A stretch of DNA of 64,000 bases from Clostridia bacterium (GTDB lineage: Bacteria; Bacillota; Clostridia; Christensenellales; UBA1242). The first letter of the stretch is position 1. The number at the start of each line of letters is the position of its first letter. A program made the translations under genes and the position numbers. Of this stretch, positions 22,338 through 32,643 are shown one piece after another. The notes beneath the pieces are model-generated. The model saw nothing but the letters and a program-made list of their open reading frames with translations, was not told where the DNA came from and did not search any database. The stretch is taken from contig JAQVWL010000002.1 of the NCBI GenBank assembly GCA_028709705.1, forward strand, positions 68,184 to 132,183, read 5' to 3'.

Positions 22338-25052
22338 ATGAAGTTAAAATCAAACAAAAAAAATATTAAGATTGAAAAAGAAAAAATTTTCTATCATTCT
22401 TTAAACATTGAAGAAGTTTTTACAGCAACAAATAGCGGTTTAGAAGGTTTAACAACAGTTGAAGCAGAAAATAGATTGGCAAAAAACGGCAAAAACGAAC
22501 TCCCCCAAAAAGCAAAAAAATCAATTTTGACTATTTTGCTTAGAGAATTATCTAACCCCATTATTATACTTTTGCTTTTTGCAAGTGTTTTTTCTTTTAT
22601 AACAAACGCACTTATTGATGCTTTTGTAATTATTGGAATAATATCCATTGATGCAATAATCGGAACAGTACAAGAAAAACGGGCAGAAAATATTGCAGAC
22701 TCCCTTATGGACTTGATAAAAATTCAAGTCAAAGTATTGCGAGATAGCGAAAAGGGATTGTTAGGTTCAAAAAATTTGGTTGTTGGAGATATTGTTTTTT
22801 TAGAGTCGGGCGACAAAATTTCTGCCGATATGCGTATTATAGATTGCAAAAATTTGAAAGTTGATGAATCTTTGTTGACAGGAGAAAGTGCAAACGCAGA
22901 AAAAAATATAAATTTTTGCGAAAAATCTGCACATTTAAGTGAAAGAAAAAATATGTTGTATGCTGGAAGTTCTGTTATAACAGGCAGGGCAATGGCAGTT
23001 GTGGTTGAAACGGGATTTAACACAGAAATTGGAAATATTGCGGAAAAAATAGCATCTGTAAAAGATGAAAAATCTCCTTTGGCAATTCGAATAAAAAAAT
23101 TTTCCAAACAAATAACTGTTGCTGTCGCAATAGTGGCGCTCGTTATTTTTGCAGTTTTGTATTTTCAGGGAAATAATTTTAATTTAATATTTCTTGCGGT
23201 AATTGCATTGGCAGTTTCGGCAATACCCGAAGGACTGCCTCTTGCGGTAACAATGGCATTGTCTGTCGCATCAAACAAAATGAGTAAAGTTAATGTTGTT
23301 GTAAAAAATTTAAACGCAGTTGAAAGTTTGGGCAGTTGTACAGTTATTGCATCAGACAAAACAGGAACTTTGACTTTAAACGAACAAACCGCAAAACTAA
23401 TTGTTTTGCCAGATGGAGAAGAATTTGAAATAACTGGAAGCGGTTACAATAATGAAGGAAAAGTTTTGCCAAACGCAAAAAGCAATTTAGCACACGCTGA
23501 AGAAATTGGTCTTATGGGAGTTTTAAACAACGAAGCAAAACTATATAAAAAAAATAATGAATTTAAAAATTTTGGCGATTCCATAGATGTTGCATTTTTG
23601 TCTTTGGGAATGAAACTTGGTTTAGACAAAAAAGACTACACATTAACAGAACGCATATCTTACGAATCAGAAAAAAAATATTCAGCAGTTTTTTATCAAA
23701 AAGATAATCAAAATTATTGCACAGCGAAAGGCAGTATAGAAAAAATAATTTCGCTTTGTGGCAAAATGAAAATGAACGACAAAATTGTTGAGTTAGATAA
23801 AAACAATTTGATTAAAATGCACGAAAAACTAGCACGAAAAGGTTTTAGAGTAATTGCTCTTGCACAAGGCGAACACATCAGTGAATTGTTGGAGGAGAAT
23901 ATAAGCGACTTGACATTTTTGGGTATGGTTGGATTTATAGACCCGATAAGAAATGAAAGCAAAAACGCTGTTGAAAACTGTTATAAAGCAGGTATAAAGG
24001 TTGTTATGATAACCGGCGACCACCCATTAACCGCTTACGCAATAGCAAAAGAAATTGGTGTTGCAAAAAACAAAAACCAAATAACAAATGGTACGGAAGT
24101 TGAAAAATATTTTAACTTGGGCGAAATTGCTTTTGATAAATTTATAAAAACAAAAACAGTATTTTCAAGAGTAACCCCAATAGAGAAATTAAACATAGTA
24201 AATTCTTTGAAAAGAATGGGTGAATTTGTTGCTGTTACAGGAGATGGGGTAAATGACGCACCTGCCATTAAAACAGCCCATATTGGCATTGCAATGGGCA
24301 GTGGAACAGATGTTGCAAAAGAAACCGCAGATATGATAATAACAGACGACAATTTTAATTCTATTGTCCAGGGTGTAAAAGAAGGTAGAAACGCTTATAG
24401 CAACATACGAAAAGTAACTTATTTTCTACTGTCAGGAGCATTCGCAGAAATTTTGTTTTTTTTGTTTTCAATAGCAATAAATTTGCCAATTCCACTTTTG
24501 GCAATTCAACTTTTGTGGATAAACATTATAACTAATGGACTGCAAGATATTGCATTATCTTTTGAAAAAGCAGAAAAAAATATTATGCAAGAAAAACCCC
24601 GTTCCACAAAGGAGTCATTGTTTAGCAAATCTTTGTTTATAGAGGTTGGTGTTTCTGGGCTTTTTATGGGTTTGTTGGTTTTTGGTGTGTGGTTTTATCT
24701 TATAGACATATTACAAATGGAAGAAATTTATGCAAGAAGTTTGACAATGGCACTTATGATATTCTTGGAAAATTTTCAAGGCTTTAATTGTCGAAGTGAA
24801 ACCGAGTCAGTTTTCAGTATTCCAATATTTTCTAACAAAATTTTCTTTGTGTCGGTAATAAGTGCAATAGTTTTACAAATTATAATTATGGAAATTGACT
24901 CGCTTAGCACTTTACTTGGTTTAACAAGTGTTTCATACTTTGATATGCTGTTATTGTTGGCACTTTCAACTGTTATTGTTGTTGTAATGGAACTATACAA
25001 ACTTGTTATAAGAAAACATAGAAAACAAAGCAAAACTAAATATGCTTACTAA
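22338..25052 (+). CDS. Cation-transporting P-type ATPase (P2/Ca2+-ATPase-like)
   Basis: 904 aa with DKTGTLT phosphorylation motif, TGES, MITGDHPLTA and VTGDGVNDAPAIK. Confidence 0.9.
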   Translation: MKLKSNKKNIKIEKEKIFYHSLNIEEVFTATNSGLEGLTTVEAENRLAKNGKNELPQKAKKSILTILLRELSNPIIILLLFASVFSFITNALIDAFVIIGIISIDAIIGTVQEKRAENIADSLMDLIKIQVKVLRDSEKGLLGSKNLVVGDIVFLESGDKISADMRIIDCKNLKVDESLLTGESANAEKNINFCEKSAHLSERKNMLYAGSSVITGRAMAVVVETGFNTEIGNIAEKIASVKDEKSPLAIRIKKFSKQITVAVAIVALVIFAVLYFQGNNFNLIFLAVIALAVSAIPEGLPLAVTMALSVASNKMSKVNVVVKNLNAVESLGSCTVIASDKTGTLTLNEQTAKLIVLPDGEEFEITGSGYNNEGKVLPNAKSNLAHAEEIGLMGVLNNEAKLYKKNNEFKNFGDSIDVAFLSLGMKLGLDKKDYTLTERISYESEKKYSAVFYQKDNQNYCTAKGSIEKIISLCGKMKMNDKIVELDKNNLIKMHEKLARKGFRVIALAQGEHISELLEENISDLTFLGMVGFIDPIRNESKNAVENCYKAGIKVVMITGDHPLTAYAIAKEIGVAKNKNQITNGTEVEKYFNLGEIAFDKFIKTKTVFSRVTPIEKLNIVNSLKRMGEFVAVTGDGVNDAPAIKTAHIGIAMGSGTDVAKETADMIITDDNFNSIVQGVKEGRNAYSNIRKVTYFLLSGAFAEILFFLFSIAINLPIPLLAIQLLWINIITNGLQDIALSFEKAEKNIMQEKPRSTKESLFSKSLFIEVGVSGLFMGLLVFGVWFYLIDILQMEEIYARSLTMALMIFLENFQGFNCRSETESVFSIPIFSNKIFFVSVISAIVLQIIIMEIDSLSTLLGLTSVSYFDMLLLLALSTVIVVVMELYKLVIRKHRKQSKTKYAY

Positions 25053-25078
25053 AAAAACGGTTTAAATAACCGTTTTTT
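25053..25078. terminator. Bidirectional terminator between the ATPase and the PIN-like gene
   Basis: ACGGTT(25057-25062)/AACCGT(25068-25073), flanked by an A-run and a T-run. Confidence 0.7.
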
Positions 25079-25769
25079 ATTGTTCTATTACTGTTTCTTT
25101 TATTAAATTTTCCCATTCCATATTCACAGTTTGAAAAACTTTTTGCCTTTTTAAAAGCGATTCCGTTTCAGTTGGCATATATGGCTTTGCACTTGGTCTT
25201 AAATGCATTGAACTATTTATATAACTTATTATATCTTGCCTTCCCCTTTTGGTAAAATCTTTTGTGTTGTTGGTTATTATTGGCACTCCCAAAATTGCAG
25301 TTTCCGCCATAATTATTGCATCGTTGATTGGTCTTTTTTCAGTTTTCCAACCGAAAACAGAATCTGCGTACCAAAAATTAGGTTTAGAGTTTATTTTTTT
25401 AATTTCTTGTTTTTGTTTATTGGTTAGTTTTCCACAATAAATTTTAGCTAGTTTATTAACTCTGTAATTAAATATTTCAATTTTTTGCTCTGGCACTTCA
25501 ATTAAATAAAAATTATTATTTCTTATAAAATTAATTGTGTTTGTTCCAAAGCGACTTACACCTTGCATTATTTCTTTATAAACAGTTGGGGTAATTATTG
25601 CTCTTATTTCACCGTTTTTTATTTTTTCTAAAATATATATATAGCTTGAATAAATATCTTGTTGTTTTAATTGGTTAATTGCTGATTGATTACCATTATC
25701 AATTCCTGCCAAACTTATTATAATATTTGTGTCTAAACACATGTCTGCTATTTTGCTAAATTTTGCCAT
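25077..25769 (-). CDS. PIN-like domain protein, paralog B (230 aa)
   Basis: MCLDTNIII (PIN strand-1 Asp), TPTVYKEI, INDAIIMAETAILGVPIITNNTKDF (PIN C-terminal signature). It aligns colinearly with the gene at 25787-26488. Confidence 0.6.
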   Translation of the reverse strand: MAKFSKIADMCLDTNIIISLAGIDNGNQSAINQLKQQDIYSSYIYILEKIKNGEIRAIITPTVYKEIMQGVSRFGTNTINFIRNNNFYLIEVPEQKIEIFNYRVNKLAKIYCGKLTNKQKQEIKKINSKPNFWYADSVFGWKTEKRPINDAIIMAETAILGVPIITNNTKDFTKRGRQDIISYINSSMHLRPSAKPYMPTETESLLKRQKVFQTVNMEWENLIKETVIEQ

Positions 25770-25786
25770 ATAATTTTTCCTTTTAA

Positions 25787-26488
25787 TTATTGTGTTAGTT
25801 CAGTAATCGGTTTTATTTTTTCAAAAACATTTGGGTTTGTTATTATTTGCCCGTTGCTTTTTTTTAAATAATTAAAATACTGCTCGCAACTATACGGAAT
25901 ACAACTTCCACTAAATCCGTTTTCAATGTTTATTTTTGCAATTGTTTGTGGTAAATTATTAACAATAAAATGGTTCGTGTTGTTAGTTATAAAAGGAAAA
26001 CCAGCAACAACTGAATGTGCAAGTATTTTTGCATCAGTTGAAATTTCTTTTTCTTTTGTTTTTATGTTCTTGTGTAAAGAAAAAGGTCTTTTGGTTACAT
26101 ATTTTTTATTTTGCCCTAATTTATTAACACTTTCAACTTGCCTTGGCGTGCTATATTCCACAGCCAACTTTTCAACTTGTTTGGCAAAGTTTGAAGAGTT
26201 TAAATTTTTAAAATCTATTGCATAGTAGTTTTGGTTTTCAATGTAATCTATAACATCATAGCCTTTTATATCAGAATATTTTTGTAATTCCTTATACACC
26301 GGTGGTAAAACAATTGGGTTTAAAACTTTTTTTTGGCTTAACATATTAAAGTGTGTTAAGCATTTATATAAATTTGTGTTTTGTTTTAAATATCGCATAA
26401 TTTCTTCATTTTTGTGCTCAATTGCACTTTGATAAATAAAAAGATTACTATCGAAACACCCAAACGGTGTGCAAGAAATTTTAGTCAT
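25787..26488 (-). CDS. PIN-like domain protein, paralog A (233 aa)
   Basis: GCFDSNLFIY, LPPVYKEL and STDAKILAHSVVAGFPFITNNTNHF. Its ATG overlaps the stop of the upstream 65-aa ORF by 8 nt. Confidence 0.6.
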   Translation of the reverse strand: MTKISCTPFGCFDSNLFIYQSAIEHKNEEIMRYLKQNTNLYKCLTHFNMLSQKKVLNPIVLPPVYKELQKYSDIKGYDVIDYIENQNYYAIDFKNLNSSNFAKQVEKLAVEYSTPRQVESVNKLGQNKKYVTKRPFSLHKNIKTKEKEISTDAKILAHSVVAGFPFITNNTNHFIVNNLPQTIAKINIENGFSGSCIPYSCEQYFNYLKKSNGQIITNPNVFEKIKPITELTQ

Positions 26489-26678
26489 TTTCCCCCCTTA
26501 AAATTTTCAAGGTTTTAATGCCTTTTTCTTTTGCATCTTTAACTGCTTTTTTGTGTTGTTTGCATAAGTAATCTATTCTCTCTTTATCTGTCATTTCCGC
26601 CAGTTCTTTGTCGGATTTTTCGCGTTGTTTTTCCAAGAATTTAATCATTTCTAAATAATCGGTTTTGTCATTTTCCAC
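26481..26678 (-). CDS. Small charged helical protein (65 aa), candidate antitoxin or partner of the PIN-like pair
   Basis: GTG start at 26678 with AGGTG 5 nt upstream. The sequence is rich in K/E/D and the ORF is translationally coupled to paralog A. Confidence 0.5.
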   Translation of the reverse strand: MENDKTDYLEMIKFLEKQREKSDKELAEMTDKERIDYLCKQHKKAVKDAKEKGIKTLKILRGEND

Positions 26679-29322: not shown

Positions 29323-29404
29323 AGTATCCTCCTGTTTGTGTGTTTAACTTTTCTATTATAAGTTAACAATCAAAATAAGTCAAGAAAAATTTTGATAGAA
29401 ATTT

Positions 29405-29438
29405 ATCAAAAAAACACACTTAAATTAAGTGTGTTTTA
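29405..29438 (-). terminator. Intrinsic terminator after the HAD-like gene
   Basis: ACACACTTAA/TTAAGTGTGT palindrome (29414-29434), followed by T7 on the minus strand. Confidence 0.65.
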
Positions 29439-29443
29439 AAATT

Positions 29444-29776
29444 TTATATAATGATTTTGTCAAAGTTTTTTAAAAAGTTTGGATTTACACTTCTATCGTC
29501 TATATAAATATCTGCTCCAATTTTTCTTGAATCGTTATTGTATTCCATATTTCTTTCCGGAACATTTTGATTTACATAATCAAAATCCAAACCAACTGTT
29601 TTACACATATCAACAGCTTCTTGAAGATATTTTCCTACTCTGCAAGTCCATAAAATTAAAGTATTACCTTCTTTTTTTAGGTTTTTTACAAAATTTATTA
29701 TATCCCATTTTGGTTGTCCTATATCTGGAAAAACATTTTCAAATAATGTTCCATCAAAATCTACTGCAACTACCAT
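29444..29776 (-). CDS. Small HAD-superfamily phosphatase-like protein (110 aa)
   Basis: VAVDFDGTL (HAD motif I) and IYIDD near the C-terminus. AGGTGA lies upstream. Confidence 0.6.
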   Translation of the reverse strand: MVVAVDFDGTLFENVFPDIGQPKWDIINFVKNLKKEGNTLILWTCRVGKYLQEAVDMCKTVGLDFDYVNQNVPERNMEYNNDSRKIGADIYIDDRSVNPNFLKNFDKIII

Positions 29777-29790
29777 ATCTCACCTATTTT

Positions 29791-30903
29791 TTAACCTTTC
29801 ATTAACCTAACAGGCAAAATCAAATATAGATATCTGTCTTGATCCCCATCAAATGGTGTAATAACACAAGGGTTTTGAGCAGAATTGAATTTTATGTTTA
29901 TAAATTCTTCTTGATTTACTTTCAATGCTTCCATAAAATATCTTGCATTAAAAGCAATCACAAACTCTTTTCCTTTAAACACAATGCTTAAATTTTCTTT
30001 TATATTTCCAATTTCAGAGCGTGAAGTAATACACAAGTTTTGGTCTCTTATATCAAATTGCACCAAGTTATTTTGTCCAATTTTGGAAAGCAAAGAAGCC
30101 CTTTCAAGTGCATCTTCTAATTGTTTTTTATTAATTGTTATCTTTGTTTCAAATTCACTGCTTATTATTTGTTTATAATTTATAAATTCGCCTTCAAGTA
30201 AACGAGTTGTGATAATACAATCTTCTAAATCAACCATCAAAAAATTTCTTTGAAAGTATATGTTTATAATTTTGTCGCTATCGTCTAATAGTTTTGCAAT
30301 TTCGTTCAAACTTCTTGCAGGAACAACAACAGAAGCAGATAAATTACTTTCTTTTATTTTTTGTGAATTAAGAGCAAGTCTAAACCCATCAAGAGCAACA
30401 GTTTTGATTTTTCCGTTTTCAATTTCAAACAAACAACCTTTAAGAATTGGTCTTGTGTCATCAATAGCAACGGAAAAAGCAGTTTTATTTATAAGGTTTT
30501 TAAAGTTTTTTTGTTCAATACCAAAAAAATCATTGCTTTCAAGTTTTTTAAAACAAGGGAATTCATAAACAGGGAAGCATTGAATAATAGTTTCACTATC
30601 AGTATATTTGATTTTTAAAGAATTGTTATCATTTAATTTTAACTCAATTCTTTCATTGGTAAGTTTTTTAATTAATTCTCCAAAAAATCTTCCTGGAACA
30701 ACTGTTTCTCCTTCAATTTTAACTTCTGCTTTTATCTTTTTTTCAATAGATAATTCCAAATCTGTGGCACTTAAAGTCACAATACCATCTTCCGCAACAA
30801 TTTTTATTCCTTCTAGAATAGGGTTTGTTGTTTTTGTACTTATAGCCCTTGAAACTGTTATAACAGCATCACATAAATCTAACCCATCACATATTAATTG
30901 CAT
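29791..30903 (-). CDS. dnaN: DNA polymerase III beta subunit (sliding clamp)
   Basis: 370 aa, MQLICDGLDLCDAVITVSRAIS..., three-domain length, AAGGAG upstream. Confidence 0.93.
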   Translation of the reverse strand: MQLICDGLDLCDAVITVSRAISTKTTNPILEGIKIVAEDGIVTLSATDLELSIEKKIKAEVKIEGETVVPGRFFGELIKKLTNERIELKLNDNNSLKIKYTDSETIIQCFPVYEFPCFKKLESNDFFGIEQKNFKNLINKTAFSVAIDDTRPILKGCLFEIENGKIKTVALDGFRLALNSQKIKESNLSASVVVPARSLNEIAKLLDDSDKIINIYFQRNFLMVDLEDCIITTRLLEGEFINYKQIISSEFETKITINKKQLEDALERASLLSKIGQNNLVQFDIRDQNLCITSRSEIGNIKENLSIVFKGKEFVIAFNARYFMEALKVNQEEFINIKFNSAQNPCVITPFDGDQDRYLYLILPVRLMKG

Positions 30904-31151
30904 TTTTTCTCCTTAAATTTTTTTAAATTTTTTGTTATACACGCGCGCTTATTATATAATATATTAAATATTATTTTAGTATTAGTATTAGTAGTGTTTG
31001 TGGAAATGTGGACAAGTTTTTACCCAAACACAATATATTGACTTGTTTTTAACAAATAACTACCATATACCGAAAAAAACTATCATTTTATTAAGTTTGT
31101 TTTTGGTGGATAAGTTTGTTAACAAAATTGCCAAATATCCACATTTCCACT
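30904..31151. other. Candidate oriC unwinding module in the dnaA-dnaN spacer
   Basis: DnaA boxes at 30999-31015 (TGTGGAAA+TGTGGACAA), 31105-31113 (GGTGGATAA) and 31135-31150 (ATATCCACA+TTTCCAC). A TAG-TAT-TAG-TAT-TAG-TAG trinucleotide array at 30977-30994 adjoins a box pair. A pure A/T tract runs 30951-30976. Confidence 0.6.
30977..30994. repeat. DnaA-trio-like trinucleotide array (TAGTAT TAGTAT TAGTAG)
   Basis: Six tandem TAG/TAT triplets lie 4 nt from the box pair at 30999-31015. Confidence 0.5.
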
Positions 31152-32504
31152 CTAACTAACATTTATAAGCATTTTTAACTGGGAAATTATATTTTTAATT
31201 TCAGGATCATTTTTAACTGATTCAGTTATTTTATCCCTTGCGTGAATAATTGTTGTGTGGTCTCTCCCTCCAAAGTATTTTCCAATACTTATCAAAGGAA
31301 CATCTAAAATTTCATTTATCAAATATATTGCTATCATTCTTGGTTCAACAATGTCTTTACTTTTCTTTTTTCCAACAATGTCTGTTTTTGATATGTTAAA
31401 ATGTGTGCAAACTACATCTGTTATTGAATCAAGAGTCAAATTTTCTTTCACAGTATTCAAATTTTCTTTAAACGCTTCTTTTGCTTCATCAATACCTGCA
31501 GATTTTTTTCCAAGCAAAGAAGCAAAGAAATGCACTTTTGAAAGTAAACCTTCCATCTCTCTAATATTTGTGTTGATTTTGTCTGCAATAAATTCAATTA
31601 CTTCATCATCAATAAAATATCTTTCCTGTTGTGCTTTTTTTCTTAAAATAGCAATTCTTGTTTCAAAGTCTGGCGGTTGAATATCTTGAATTAACCCACA
31701 AGCAAATCTTGATTCCAACCTTTGAGCAAGTGTCGCAATTTCTTTTGGAGGGCGATCGGAAGATAAAATAATTTGTTTGTTGTTTTGATATAAGTCGTTA
31801 AATGTGTGGAAGAACTCTTCTTGTGTGGAATCTTTTTTTGAAAGGAATTGAATATCATCAACCATAAGTATATCAAGATTTCTATATTTTTCTCTAAACT
31901 CAATTTTACTTTCTTCTTTTTTTGAAAGCATAGACTCAATATAATCGTTTGTAAATTTTTCACAAGTAACATATTTGATTTTTAGGTTTGGATAAAACTG
32001 AATTATATAATTTCCAATAGCGTGCAATAAGTGAGTTTTTCCTAAACCAACACCACCATAAATAAACAATGGATTAAATTTTTTTCCGGGATTTTCAGCA
32101 ACAGCTCTTGCACCCGCATAAACGAATTGATTGCTTTTTCCAACCACAAAATTTTCAAAAGTGTATTTCAAATTAAACATATTTTTATCTTCTTCTGTTT
32201 TTGTAAAAATTTGTTCATTTGCTGGATTATGTATTTTTATATATTGTTCTTTTTCAACAAGGTCAATAATTTCAACTTCTGTGTTTTCGTCAAAAACTTG
32301 AAACACAGTTTCTTTTATTTGTTTTAAGTGATTTTTTATTAGTTGATTTTTTGCAGTTGTTGTTGAAGCAACCAAAACCAAAACTTTATTTTCTCTATAT
32401 TCCAAAACTTCAATTGTTTTTATCCAAAGTTCAAAAGACACAGAACTAACTTGAACTTCTAACTTTGATAAAACTTTATTCCAAAGTGATTTTATTTCTT
32501 CCAT
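31152..32504 (-). CDS. dnaA: Chromosomal replication initiator DnaA
   Basis: 450 aa with AAA+ Walker A GGVGLGKTHLLHAIGN and C-terminal DNA-binding helix GGRDHTTIIHARDKI. Confidence 0.97.
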   Translation of the reverse strand: MEEIKSLWNKVLSKLEVQVSSVSFELWIKTIEVLEYRENKVLVLVASTTTAKNQLIKNHLKQIKETVFQVFDENTEVEIIDLVEKEQYIKIHNPANEQIFTKTEEDKNMFNLKYTFENFVVGKSNQFVYAGARAVAENPGKKFNPLFIYGGVGLGKTHLLHAIGNYIIQFYPNLKIKYVTCEKFTNDYIESMLSKKEESKIEFREKYRNLDILMVDDIQFLSKKDSTQEEFFHTFNDLYQNNKQIILSSDRPPKEIATLAQRLESRFACGLIQDIQPPDFETRIAILRKKAQQERYFIDDEVIEFIADKINTNIREMEGLLSKVHFFASLLGKKSAGIDEAKEAFKENLNTVKENLTLDSITDVVCTHFNISKTDIVGKKKSKDIVEPRMIAIYLINEILDVPLISIGKYFGGRDHTTIIHARDKITESVKNDPEIKNIISQLKMLINVS

Positions 32505-32608
32505 ATCGTGAGAACTCCTAATTTCATATTATTATATATTACTATACCAACAAAAGTCAATAAATTATCCAAAATCAAAAACCAATATAATTTTTGTAAA
32601 ACATTCAA

Positions 32609-32637
32609 TTTACAAATTTTTAAAAGTTTGGTATAAT
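32609..32637 (+). promoter_or_regulatory. Promoter abutting the recF start: TTTACA-N17-TATAAT-N6-GTG
   Basis: TTTACA at 32609-32614, TATAAT at 32632-32637, six A residues, then the GTG at 32644. No Shine-Dalgarno sequence. Confidence 0.4.
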
Positions 32638-32643
32638 AAAAAA

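Follow-up and report, generated by a model that had tools for sequence, protein, structure and literature searches.

The window analysed here is a stretch of 64,000 nucleotides (nt) of contig JAQVWL010000002.1 from a Clostridia bacterium, and the element under study is a three-gene module located next to jag. It consists of three minus-strand open reading frames (ORFs) of 65, 233 and 230 amino acids (aa), the first of which starts with GTG, and their coordinates agree exactly with those of a first-pass annotation made from the sequence alone (Table 1). That annotation had read them as an atypical toxin-antitoxin or defence-like module, formed by a small protein and two tandem PIN-like paralogs, which are called A (233 aa) and B (230 aa) below. 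The stop of the small ORF overlaps the start of paralog A by 8 nt (ATGACTAA), as had been annotated, and a G-rich Shine-Dalgarno sequence is found just 5' of that start. The spacing between paralogs A and B measures 17 nt and not the 18 nt that had been counted.

Concerning the expression signals, sequence scans indicate that one promoter and one terminator serve the three ORFs. The promoter and the AGGTG ribosome-binding site (RBS) described in the first-pass annotation were both found, and both are kept in the orthologous locus L001, which conserves the -35 box, the extended -10, the RBS and the start position of the small ORF, with ATG as start codon versus GTG in the window. A hairpin equivalent to the jag terminator is also kept in L001. 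It should be noted that promoter-like matches in general are not more frequent than in shuffled sequences (14 observed versus 10.6 ± 2.6 expected); the region listed in Table 1 is a putative module promoter, judging from its sequence. The terminator at the downstream boundary is common to the module and to the convergent gene of a P-type ATPase. A scan of the window with Rfam returned no RNA family.

Table 1. Genes and predicted expression signals of the module, with positions in the window.
Feature	Position	Strand	Basis
Small partner ORF, 65 aa	26481-26678	minus	ORF call; GTG start
Paralog A, extended PIN-like protein, 233 aa, His-type	25787-26488	minus	ORF call
Paralog B, extended PIN-like protein, 230 aa, Asp-type	25077-25769	minus	ORF call
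jag intrinsic terminator, upstream boundary of the module	26774-26756	minus	Terminator scan: 6-bp stem and T-run
Putative module promoter, sigma-70-type, TTGATT-17-TAAAAT, TG extended -10	26727-26699	minus	Promoter scan, 9/12 matches
Bidirectional hairpin terminator, downstream boundary	25052-25078	both	11-bp stem, A/T runs on either side

The two large proteins are paralogous, with 28% identity over 214 residues in BLASTP (E = 7e-19), and the motif blocks that had been quoted from them align as described. Neither is recognised easily by profile libraries. Paralog B matches the Pfam PIN family (PF01850) with 18.2 bits (E = 0.0041), below the gathering threshold of 23.6, and paralog A gives no Pfam PIN match. 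NCBIfam and PHROGs searches with the three proteins yielded nothing meaningful, so that, with PADLOC also giving no assignment, none of them could be placed in a well-characterised family. Among 5.8 billion proteins searched with a word index, only four relatives came up for B and two for A. With an exhaustive hidden Markov model search, 131 of 1.84 billion cluster representatives were recovered (E ≤ 1e-3), most of them 210-290 aa long. When 44 of these relatives were scanned against Pfam, 14 matched PIN (E ≤ 0.01, best 1.8e-7), eight matched PIN_12 (best E = 1.8e-5) and five matched PIN_3. The family profile also aligned with the VapC structure 7by2 (E = 1.2e-6), the match running through the DTN strand on the N-terminal side and the DA.I.A...T.N..DF block on the C-terminal side.

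The structural data point in the same direction. An AlphaFold2 model of paralog B, built on the family alignment, reached a mean predicted local distance difference test (pLDDT) of 94.7 and a predicted template modelling (TM) score of 0.92. Its comparison with the PDB by Foldseek returned PIN domains for essentially all of the top ~45 matches, led by VapC of Shigella, Rickettsia, Salmonella and M. tuberculosis (probability 0.96-1.0, target-normalised TM 0.53-0.67) and followed by the PIN domains of HARP, Nmd4, FitB and Utp24. The matches in BFVD, a library of viral structures, were all weak and of a generic PIN/FEN-like type. As modelled, the fold of B is a three-layer alpha/beta/alpha PIN of the VapC-like group, which agrees with the PIN-type nucleases that had been proposed. 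The PIN identity of these weakly scoring window proteins follows from the family-wide profile, alignment and model evidence and, by sequence and model, A and B are enlarged, paralogous PIN nucleases.

The enlargement over a VapC of ~132 aa comes to about 100 residues. Based on the secondary structure of the B model and on residue spacing, it is composed of an insertion of ~18 aa between D13 and E66, another of ~28 aa between E66 and D150, and a helical C-terminal extension of ~55 aa. The extension is the one that had been noted before, whereas the single insertion of 60-70 aa that had accompanied it is replaced by these two smaller ones. The extension carries an IxxIN...P motif with a near-invariant Asn (N185, 114/122) and Pro (P196, 100/122). 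Both proteins are basic, with isoelectric points of 9.2 and 9.4. The long members of the family (314-613 aa) were scanned for additional domains and solely a second, often degenerate, PIN-like copy was found in them.

Active-site columns were counted in an alignment of 122 family sequences, using the numbering of B. Asp is present at position 13 in all 122 sequences, while Glu at position 66 and Asp at position 150 are each found in 115, and Thr at position 166 in 114. Position 168 holds Asn in 94 sequences and Asp in 26, and position 171 holds Asp in 75 and His in 43. These catalytic columns correspond to the VapC site that has been tabulated as D6-E43-D99-E120/N117 for the H. influenzae and R. 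felis enzymes (PMC5499597). Paralog B is of the Asp type (D13, E66, D150, N168 and D171, motif TNNTKDF) and has the complete acidic quartet. Paralog A is of the His type (motif TNNTNHF); it keeps the equivalents of D13, E66 and D150, and three of its four ligands are acidic.

The difference between TNNTNHF and TNNTKDF had been taken as a mark of a catalytically altered copy. Following this idea, A would be a pseudo-nuclease that regulates or neutralises B, and the His of A facing the Asp of B at the fourth metal-ligand position, together with the genuinely degenerate copies present in other arrays of the family, could be read in this way. Those degenerate copies are copy 2 of the G166 array (G166_c2/P0044), the N-terminal halves of two fused proteins (P0017_N and P0019_N) and the C-terminal half of the 613-aa protein of G038; all are either the second copy of an array or one half of a fusion, and two or three ligands are gone in each of them, which is not the case in A. 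Since 43 of the 122 relatives also have His in this column, among them L004 and other single-copy members, it is a normal variant of the family and not a defect. A regulatory pseudo-nuclease role for A is thus very improbable.

Regarding the small gene, 20 of 21 related loci have an ORF of 34-97 aa directly 5' of the PIN-like gene, either overlapping it by 4-14 nt or separated from it by a gap of a few nt. The encoded proteins align colinearly, sharing a turn L.xM(T/S)xE(E/Q)R(I/L)x(Y/F)(Y/L) and a tail A(K/E)xxG(I/L)KT(L/I/V). The AlphaFold2 model of the 65-aa protein (pLDDT 87.8) displays two helices, 2-28 and 31-52 (pLDDT ~95), followed by a flexible C-terminal tail (~55); it contains neither a beta-strand nor a third helix. 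In a Pfam scan of 18 small-protein members no family came up repeatedly, no sequence relative of the 65-aa protein was found in the PDB, and its best fold match had E = 3.5, so that none was accepted. Weak single matches of this protein to DUF7167, BH0509 and FemAB were discarded as chance, as they recur in 0/17 homologs. An acidic tail as a universal property was also rejected by charge counts in the 18 members; the tail is acidic in some and basic in others, and therefore charge alone does not define it. As far as sequence and model indicate, the small protein has none of the domains (AbrB, RHH, Phd or HTH) by which a classical VapB is defined.

The conserved unit is thus a pair of genes, the one encoding the small hairpin protein and the one encoding a PIN-like protein of ~220-280 aa. 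The three-gene linkage expected in other genomes was recovered at the level of this pair, and the complete order small-A-B beside jag is kept only in the close relatives L001 and L003.

The PIN-like family was found in 44 of 201 genomes (~22%) and in 18 of 58 genera of the taxonomic family of the host, mostly as one copy and in some cases as two to four. Elsewhere in the class, ~390 genomes belonging to other families gave no match at E ≤ 1e-5. The genomes of the carrier lineage are of ~0.9-1.3 Mb; that of the window (0.92 Mb, 99.5% complete) contains only the two copies described here. The flanking genes differ at nearly every locus and include those for a penicillin-binding protein and the CCA-adding enzyme, rplQ, rplJ/L, proS, dnaA, gltX, nrdR, a queT-like gene, mnmE and jag. 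Some copies carry stops or are fragmented (G166, G113, G117, G067 and G052). On the other hand, purifying selection acts on each of the three genes in the window, with ratios of nonsynonymous to synonymous substitutions against L001 of 0.075 for the small protein, 0.150 for A and 0.165 for B. With ~27%, the GC content of the module is that of the neighbouring DNA, and composition thus gives no hint of a recent transfer. The accessory character attributed to the locus is borne out by the patchy distribution, by the varied contexts and by the variable region that follows jag within the genus.

Defence genes typically show a distribution of this kind, patchy, lineage-restricted and fast-diverging, with paralog arrays and pseudogenes, and many toxin-antitoxin-like PIN systems act as defence. 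The module could then be an anti-phage abortive-infection system in which the pair of small protein and PIN nuclease stays inactive until infection and then degrades RNA. However, none of the three proteins matched a PADLOC model even at E ≤ 10, the loci are flanked by housekeeping genes with no recognisable defence islands, and tblastn gave no phage or plasmid homologs. A role in defence is therefore considered unlikely, and nothing specific was found to support the "defence-like" part of the first-pass label.

Another explanation is that the module encodes a lineage-specific RNA-processing nuclease complex, involved for example in tRNA or rRNA maturation or in mRNA turnover, with the small protein as a structural or regulatory subunit. 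The presence of HARP, Nmd4 and Utp24 PIN domains in the fold search would fit with it, and the helical insertions and the C-terminal extension might serve to measure the substrate. Translation-related genes are frequent in the flanks (jag, mnmE, rplJ/L, rplQ, proS, gltX and the CCA-adding enzyme), and the strong purifying selection acting on the three genes would also be expected. Nevertheless, such neighbours are expected by chance in genomes of ~1 Mb, and a prevalence of ~22%, differing positions and pseudogenised copies indicate that no core function is performed. A known system of this type is HARP, the minimal protein-only RNase P related to PIN_5, which is also a PIN core with inserted helices. 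Its target-normalised TM is 0.41-0.45, compared with 0.59-0.67 for the leading VapC matches (probability 1.0), and the window proteins have no Pfam PIN_5 match. Furthermore, the genome retains the classical gene context of the RNase P protein, with an rnpA-like gene (identified by position only) beside rpmH, and the module is patchy and not essential, in contrast to what would be expected of an RNase P. Taken together, an RNA-processing role seems even less probable than defence.

Tandem arrays deserve separate attention. In a maximum-likelihood tree, A and B belong to different well-supported clades, and because of this separation their divergence is old and a recent duplication, with A as a late copy of B, is rejected; the tandem paralogy that had been noted stands. 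Copies 2 and 3 of other arrays group together in the same tree. The other multi-PIN arrays arose as independent events.

Several of these arrays are worth describing. In the same genus, L009 (G166:C166:594-4289, minus) has a small gene (68 aa) and, after it, three PIN-like genes in tandem. A TAA stop interrupts copy 1, the active site of copy 2 is degenerate, and copy 3 is intact and of the His type; a gene for a QueT/VUT-like membrane protein lies directly upstream. L002 presents a small gene, a single PIN-like gene and then a fused pair of a degenerate and an intact copy (P0019, 550 aa; coordinates 1516-1791 of L002 are listed with this fusion protein), in an array that is divergent beside mnmE. 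P0019 and P0017 (493 aa) are natural fusions of a degenerate N-terminal and an intact C-terminal PIN-like copy. The 613-aa protein of G038 (L029, G038:C7, 6353-8194, minus), also from the same genus and ~2 kb downstream of jag, joins an intact N-terminal domain of this PIN-like family to a degenerate second copy through a long linker of low complexity, and has no Pfam match. In L028-L031 of this genus, jag is followed by a QueT/VUT-like membrane gene and then by accessory genes that differ in each genome. The interval between jag and mnmE looks like a hot-spot of accessory genes in this lineage.

Considering these data, the module is probably, though with restrained confidence, a divergent and lineage-restricted VapBC-like system in the style of type II toxin-antitoxin modules. 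This reading is based on the VapC-type PIN fold, the catalytic site, which is intact and strongly conserved, and the overlapping small upstream gene, and also on the co-conservation of the two gene families and on a patchy, context-free and pseudogene-prone distribution. Overall, the toxin-antitoxin interpretation of the first-pass annotation is supported. According to it, A and B would be metal-dependent PIN endoribonucleases acting as the RNase effectors and potentially toxic to the cell, and the 65-aa protein, translationally coupled to A, would be their cognate neutraliser. The conserved flexible C-terminal tail of the small protein may attach to the nuclease and occlude the active-site groove. 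A and B are probably dimeric like other VapC proteins, and the A-B heterodimer would be the most likely form, since tandem, fused and half-degenerate PIN pairs recur in the family. As the small protein has no DNA-binding domain, autoregulation of the operon, if any, would have to work differently from that of VapB.

The closest known relatives in architecture are the VapBC systems of the VapC PIN.COG1487 group, such as the tRNA(fMet)-specific VapC of Shigella, Salmonella and Rickettsia. Both share the PIN fold with a VapC-type helical insert in which the catalytic Glu is located, the D-E-D-(D/E) site with its C-terminal T-N-N-T-x-(D/E)-F motif, a single promoter for the nuclease gene and the small gene that precedes and overlaps it, and a patchy accessory distribution. 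On the other hand, the nucleases of the module have ~230 aa (210-290 aa in most of the family) compared with ~130 aa, or 130-150 aa for stand-alone toxins; the partner is a two-helix hairpin without AbrB, RHH, Phd or HTH domain; one small gene accompanies two nuclease paralogs, and one or three elsewhere; His is often found at the fourth acidic ligand; and the window proteins score below the Pfam and NCBIfam thresholds for VapC and PIN. Since two defining features are missing, the DNA-binding antitoxin and the stand-alone toxin of ~130 aa, the module would work like VapBC and not be a member of it.

Antitoxins without a DNA-binding domain are known from three-component systems, namely PaaA2 and epsilon (PMC5086665). 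PaaR-PaaA-ParE and omega-epsilon-zeta resemble the module in having a small helical antitoxin or antitoxin-like protein of this kind in a three-gene operon. However, the third gene is one for a transcriptional repressor in those systems and one for a second nuclease paralog in the module, and their toxins have the ParE and zeta folds, unrelated to PIN. Among PIN systems, the HTH-DUF955-PIN type does not apply, as no HTH or DUF955 gene was found in the operon or its flanks, and the PIN_26 cluster of Matelska et al. (PMC5499597) was rejected since it is accompanied by HTH and DUF955 partners. DUF4935/PIN_12 and other clusters of the VapC group with uncharacterised function (PMC5499597) are similar in being enlarged PIN proteins. 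Nevertheless, DUF4935 has ~350 aa with an alpha/beta C-terminal region and no small-hairpin partner has been described for it, and the window proteins give no PIN_12 match.

Some features weigh against a VapBC-like module. The defining feature of VapB is missing, as the small protein has neither a DNA-binding domain nor any detectable relative, and no third regulator gene lies beside the small gene. Its last ten residues are net acidic (-3 to -5) in 8 of the 18 small proteins and net basic in 7. One small gene for two or three nuclease genes is unusual among toxin-antitoxin systems, and the window nucleases, ~100 aa longer than VapC, remain under the Pfam PIN threshold. Signs of mobility are also scarce: besides the lack of homologs in the plasmid and phage collections, there is no integrase at the module and no direct or inverted repeats flank it, and adjacency to tRNA genes is not consistent, with such genes near 3 of 22 loci only.

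A more far-reaching possibility, put forward tentatively, is that these modules constitute an undescribed class of PIN systems in one family of uncultured Bacillota with genomes of ~1 Mb. In them, an alpha-hairpin protein devoid of DNA-binding domain would control hetero-oligomeric, enlarged VapC-like paralogs with His-type and Asp-type sites, with pseudo-nuclease subunits in some arrays, which would mean a new antitoxin type and multi-subunit toxins compared with the simple VapBC pair. More generally, the module would add a structurally distinct branch to the largest toxin-antitoxin superfamily, distinguished by the enlarged nuclease, by a partner without relatives or DNA-binding domain, and by recurrent arrays of two or three paralogs, some fused and some catalytically dead. 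The persistence of the modules under purifying selection in genomes of ~0.9-1.3 Mb raises the question of which benefit, or addiction, retains them. Moreover, they offer a compact system to study the evolution of PIN dimers towards heterodimers and pseudo-enzymes.

Finally, the surroundings of the module in the window show further features. The gene order jag, module, P-type ATPase, rlmD-like gene and mnmE was corroborated by NCBIfam, which identified the neighbours as YidC, Jag/EloR, a P-type (Ca-type-like) ATPase, RlmD and MnmE. The ATPase (904 aa, 22338-25052, plus strand) scored best against models of the Ca2+ type (PMR1/SERCA), under every equivalog cut-off. Within a long block of minus-strand genes, its gene is the sole one on the plus strand, and it runs towards the module up to the terminator that both use. 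On the other side (window 29323-32643), dnaA (31152-32504) and dnaN (29791-30903) share the strand with rpmH-rnpA-yidD-yidC-jag and are not divergent from them. A co-directional arrangement of dnaA and dnaN with these genes is unusual for Bacillota. This origin-proximal block also contains an odd small insert between dnaN and rpmH, a 110-aa ORF (29444-29776, minus) whose N-terminus bears a HAD-like DxDGT motif.

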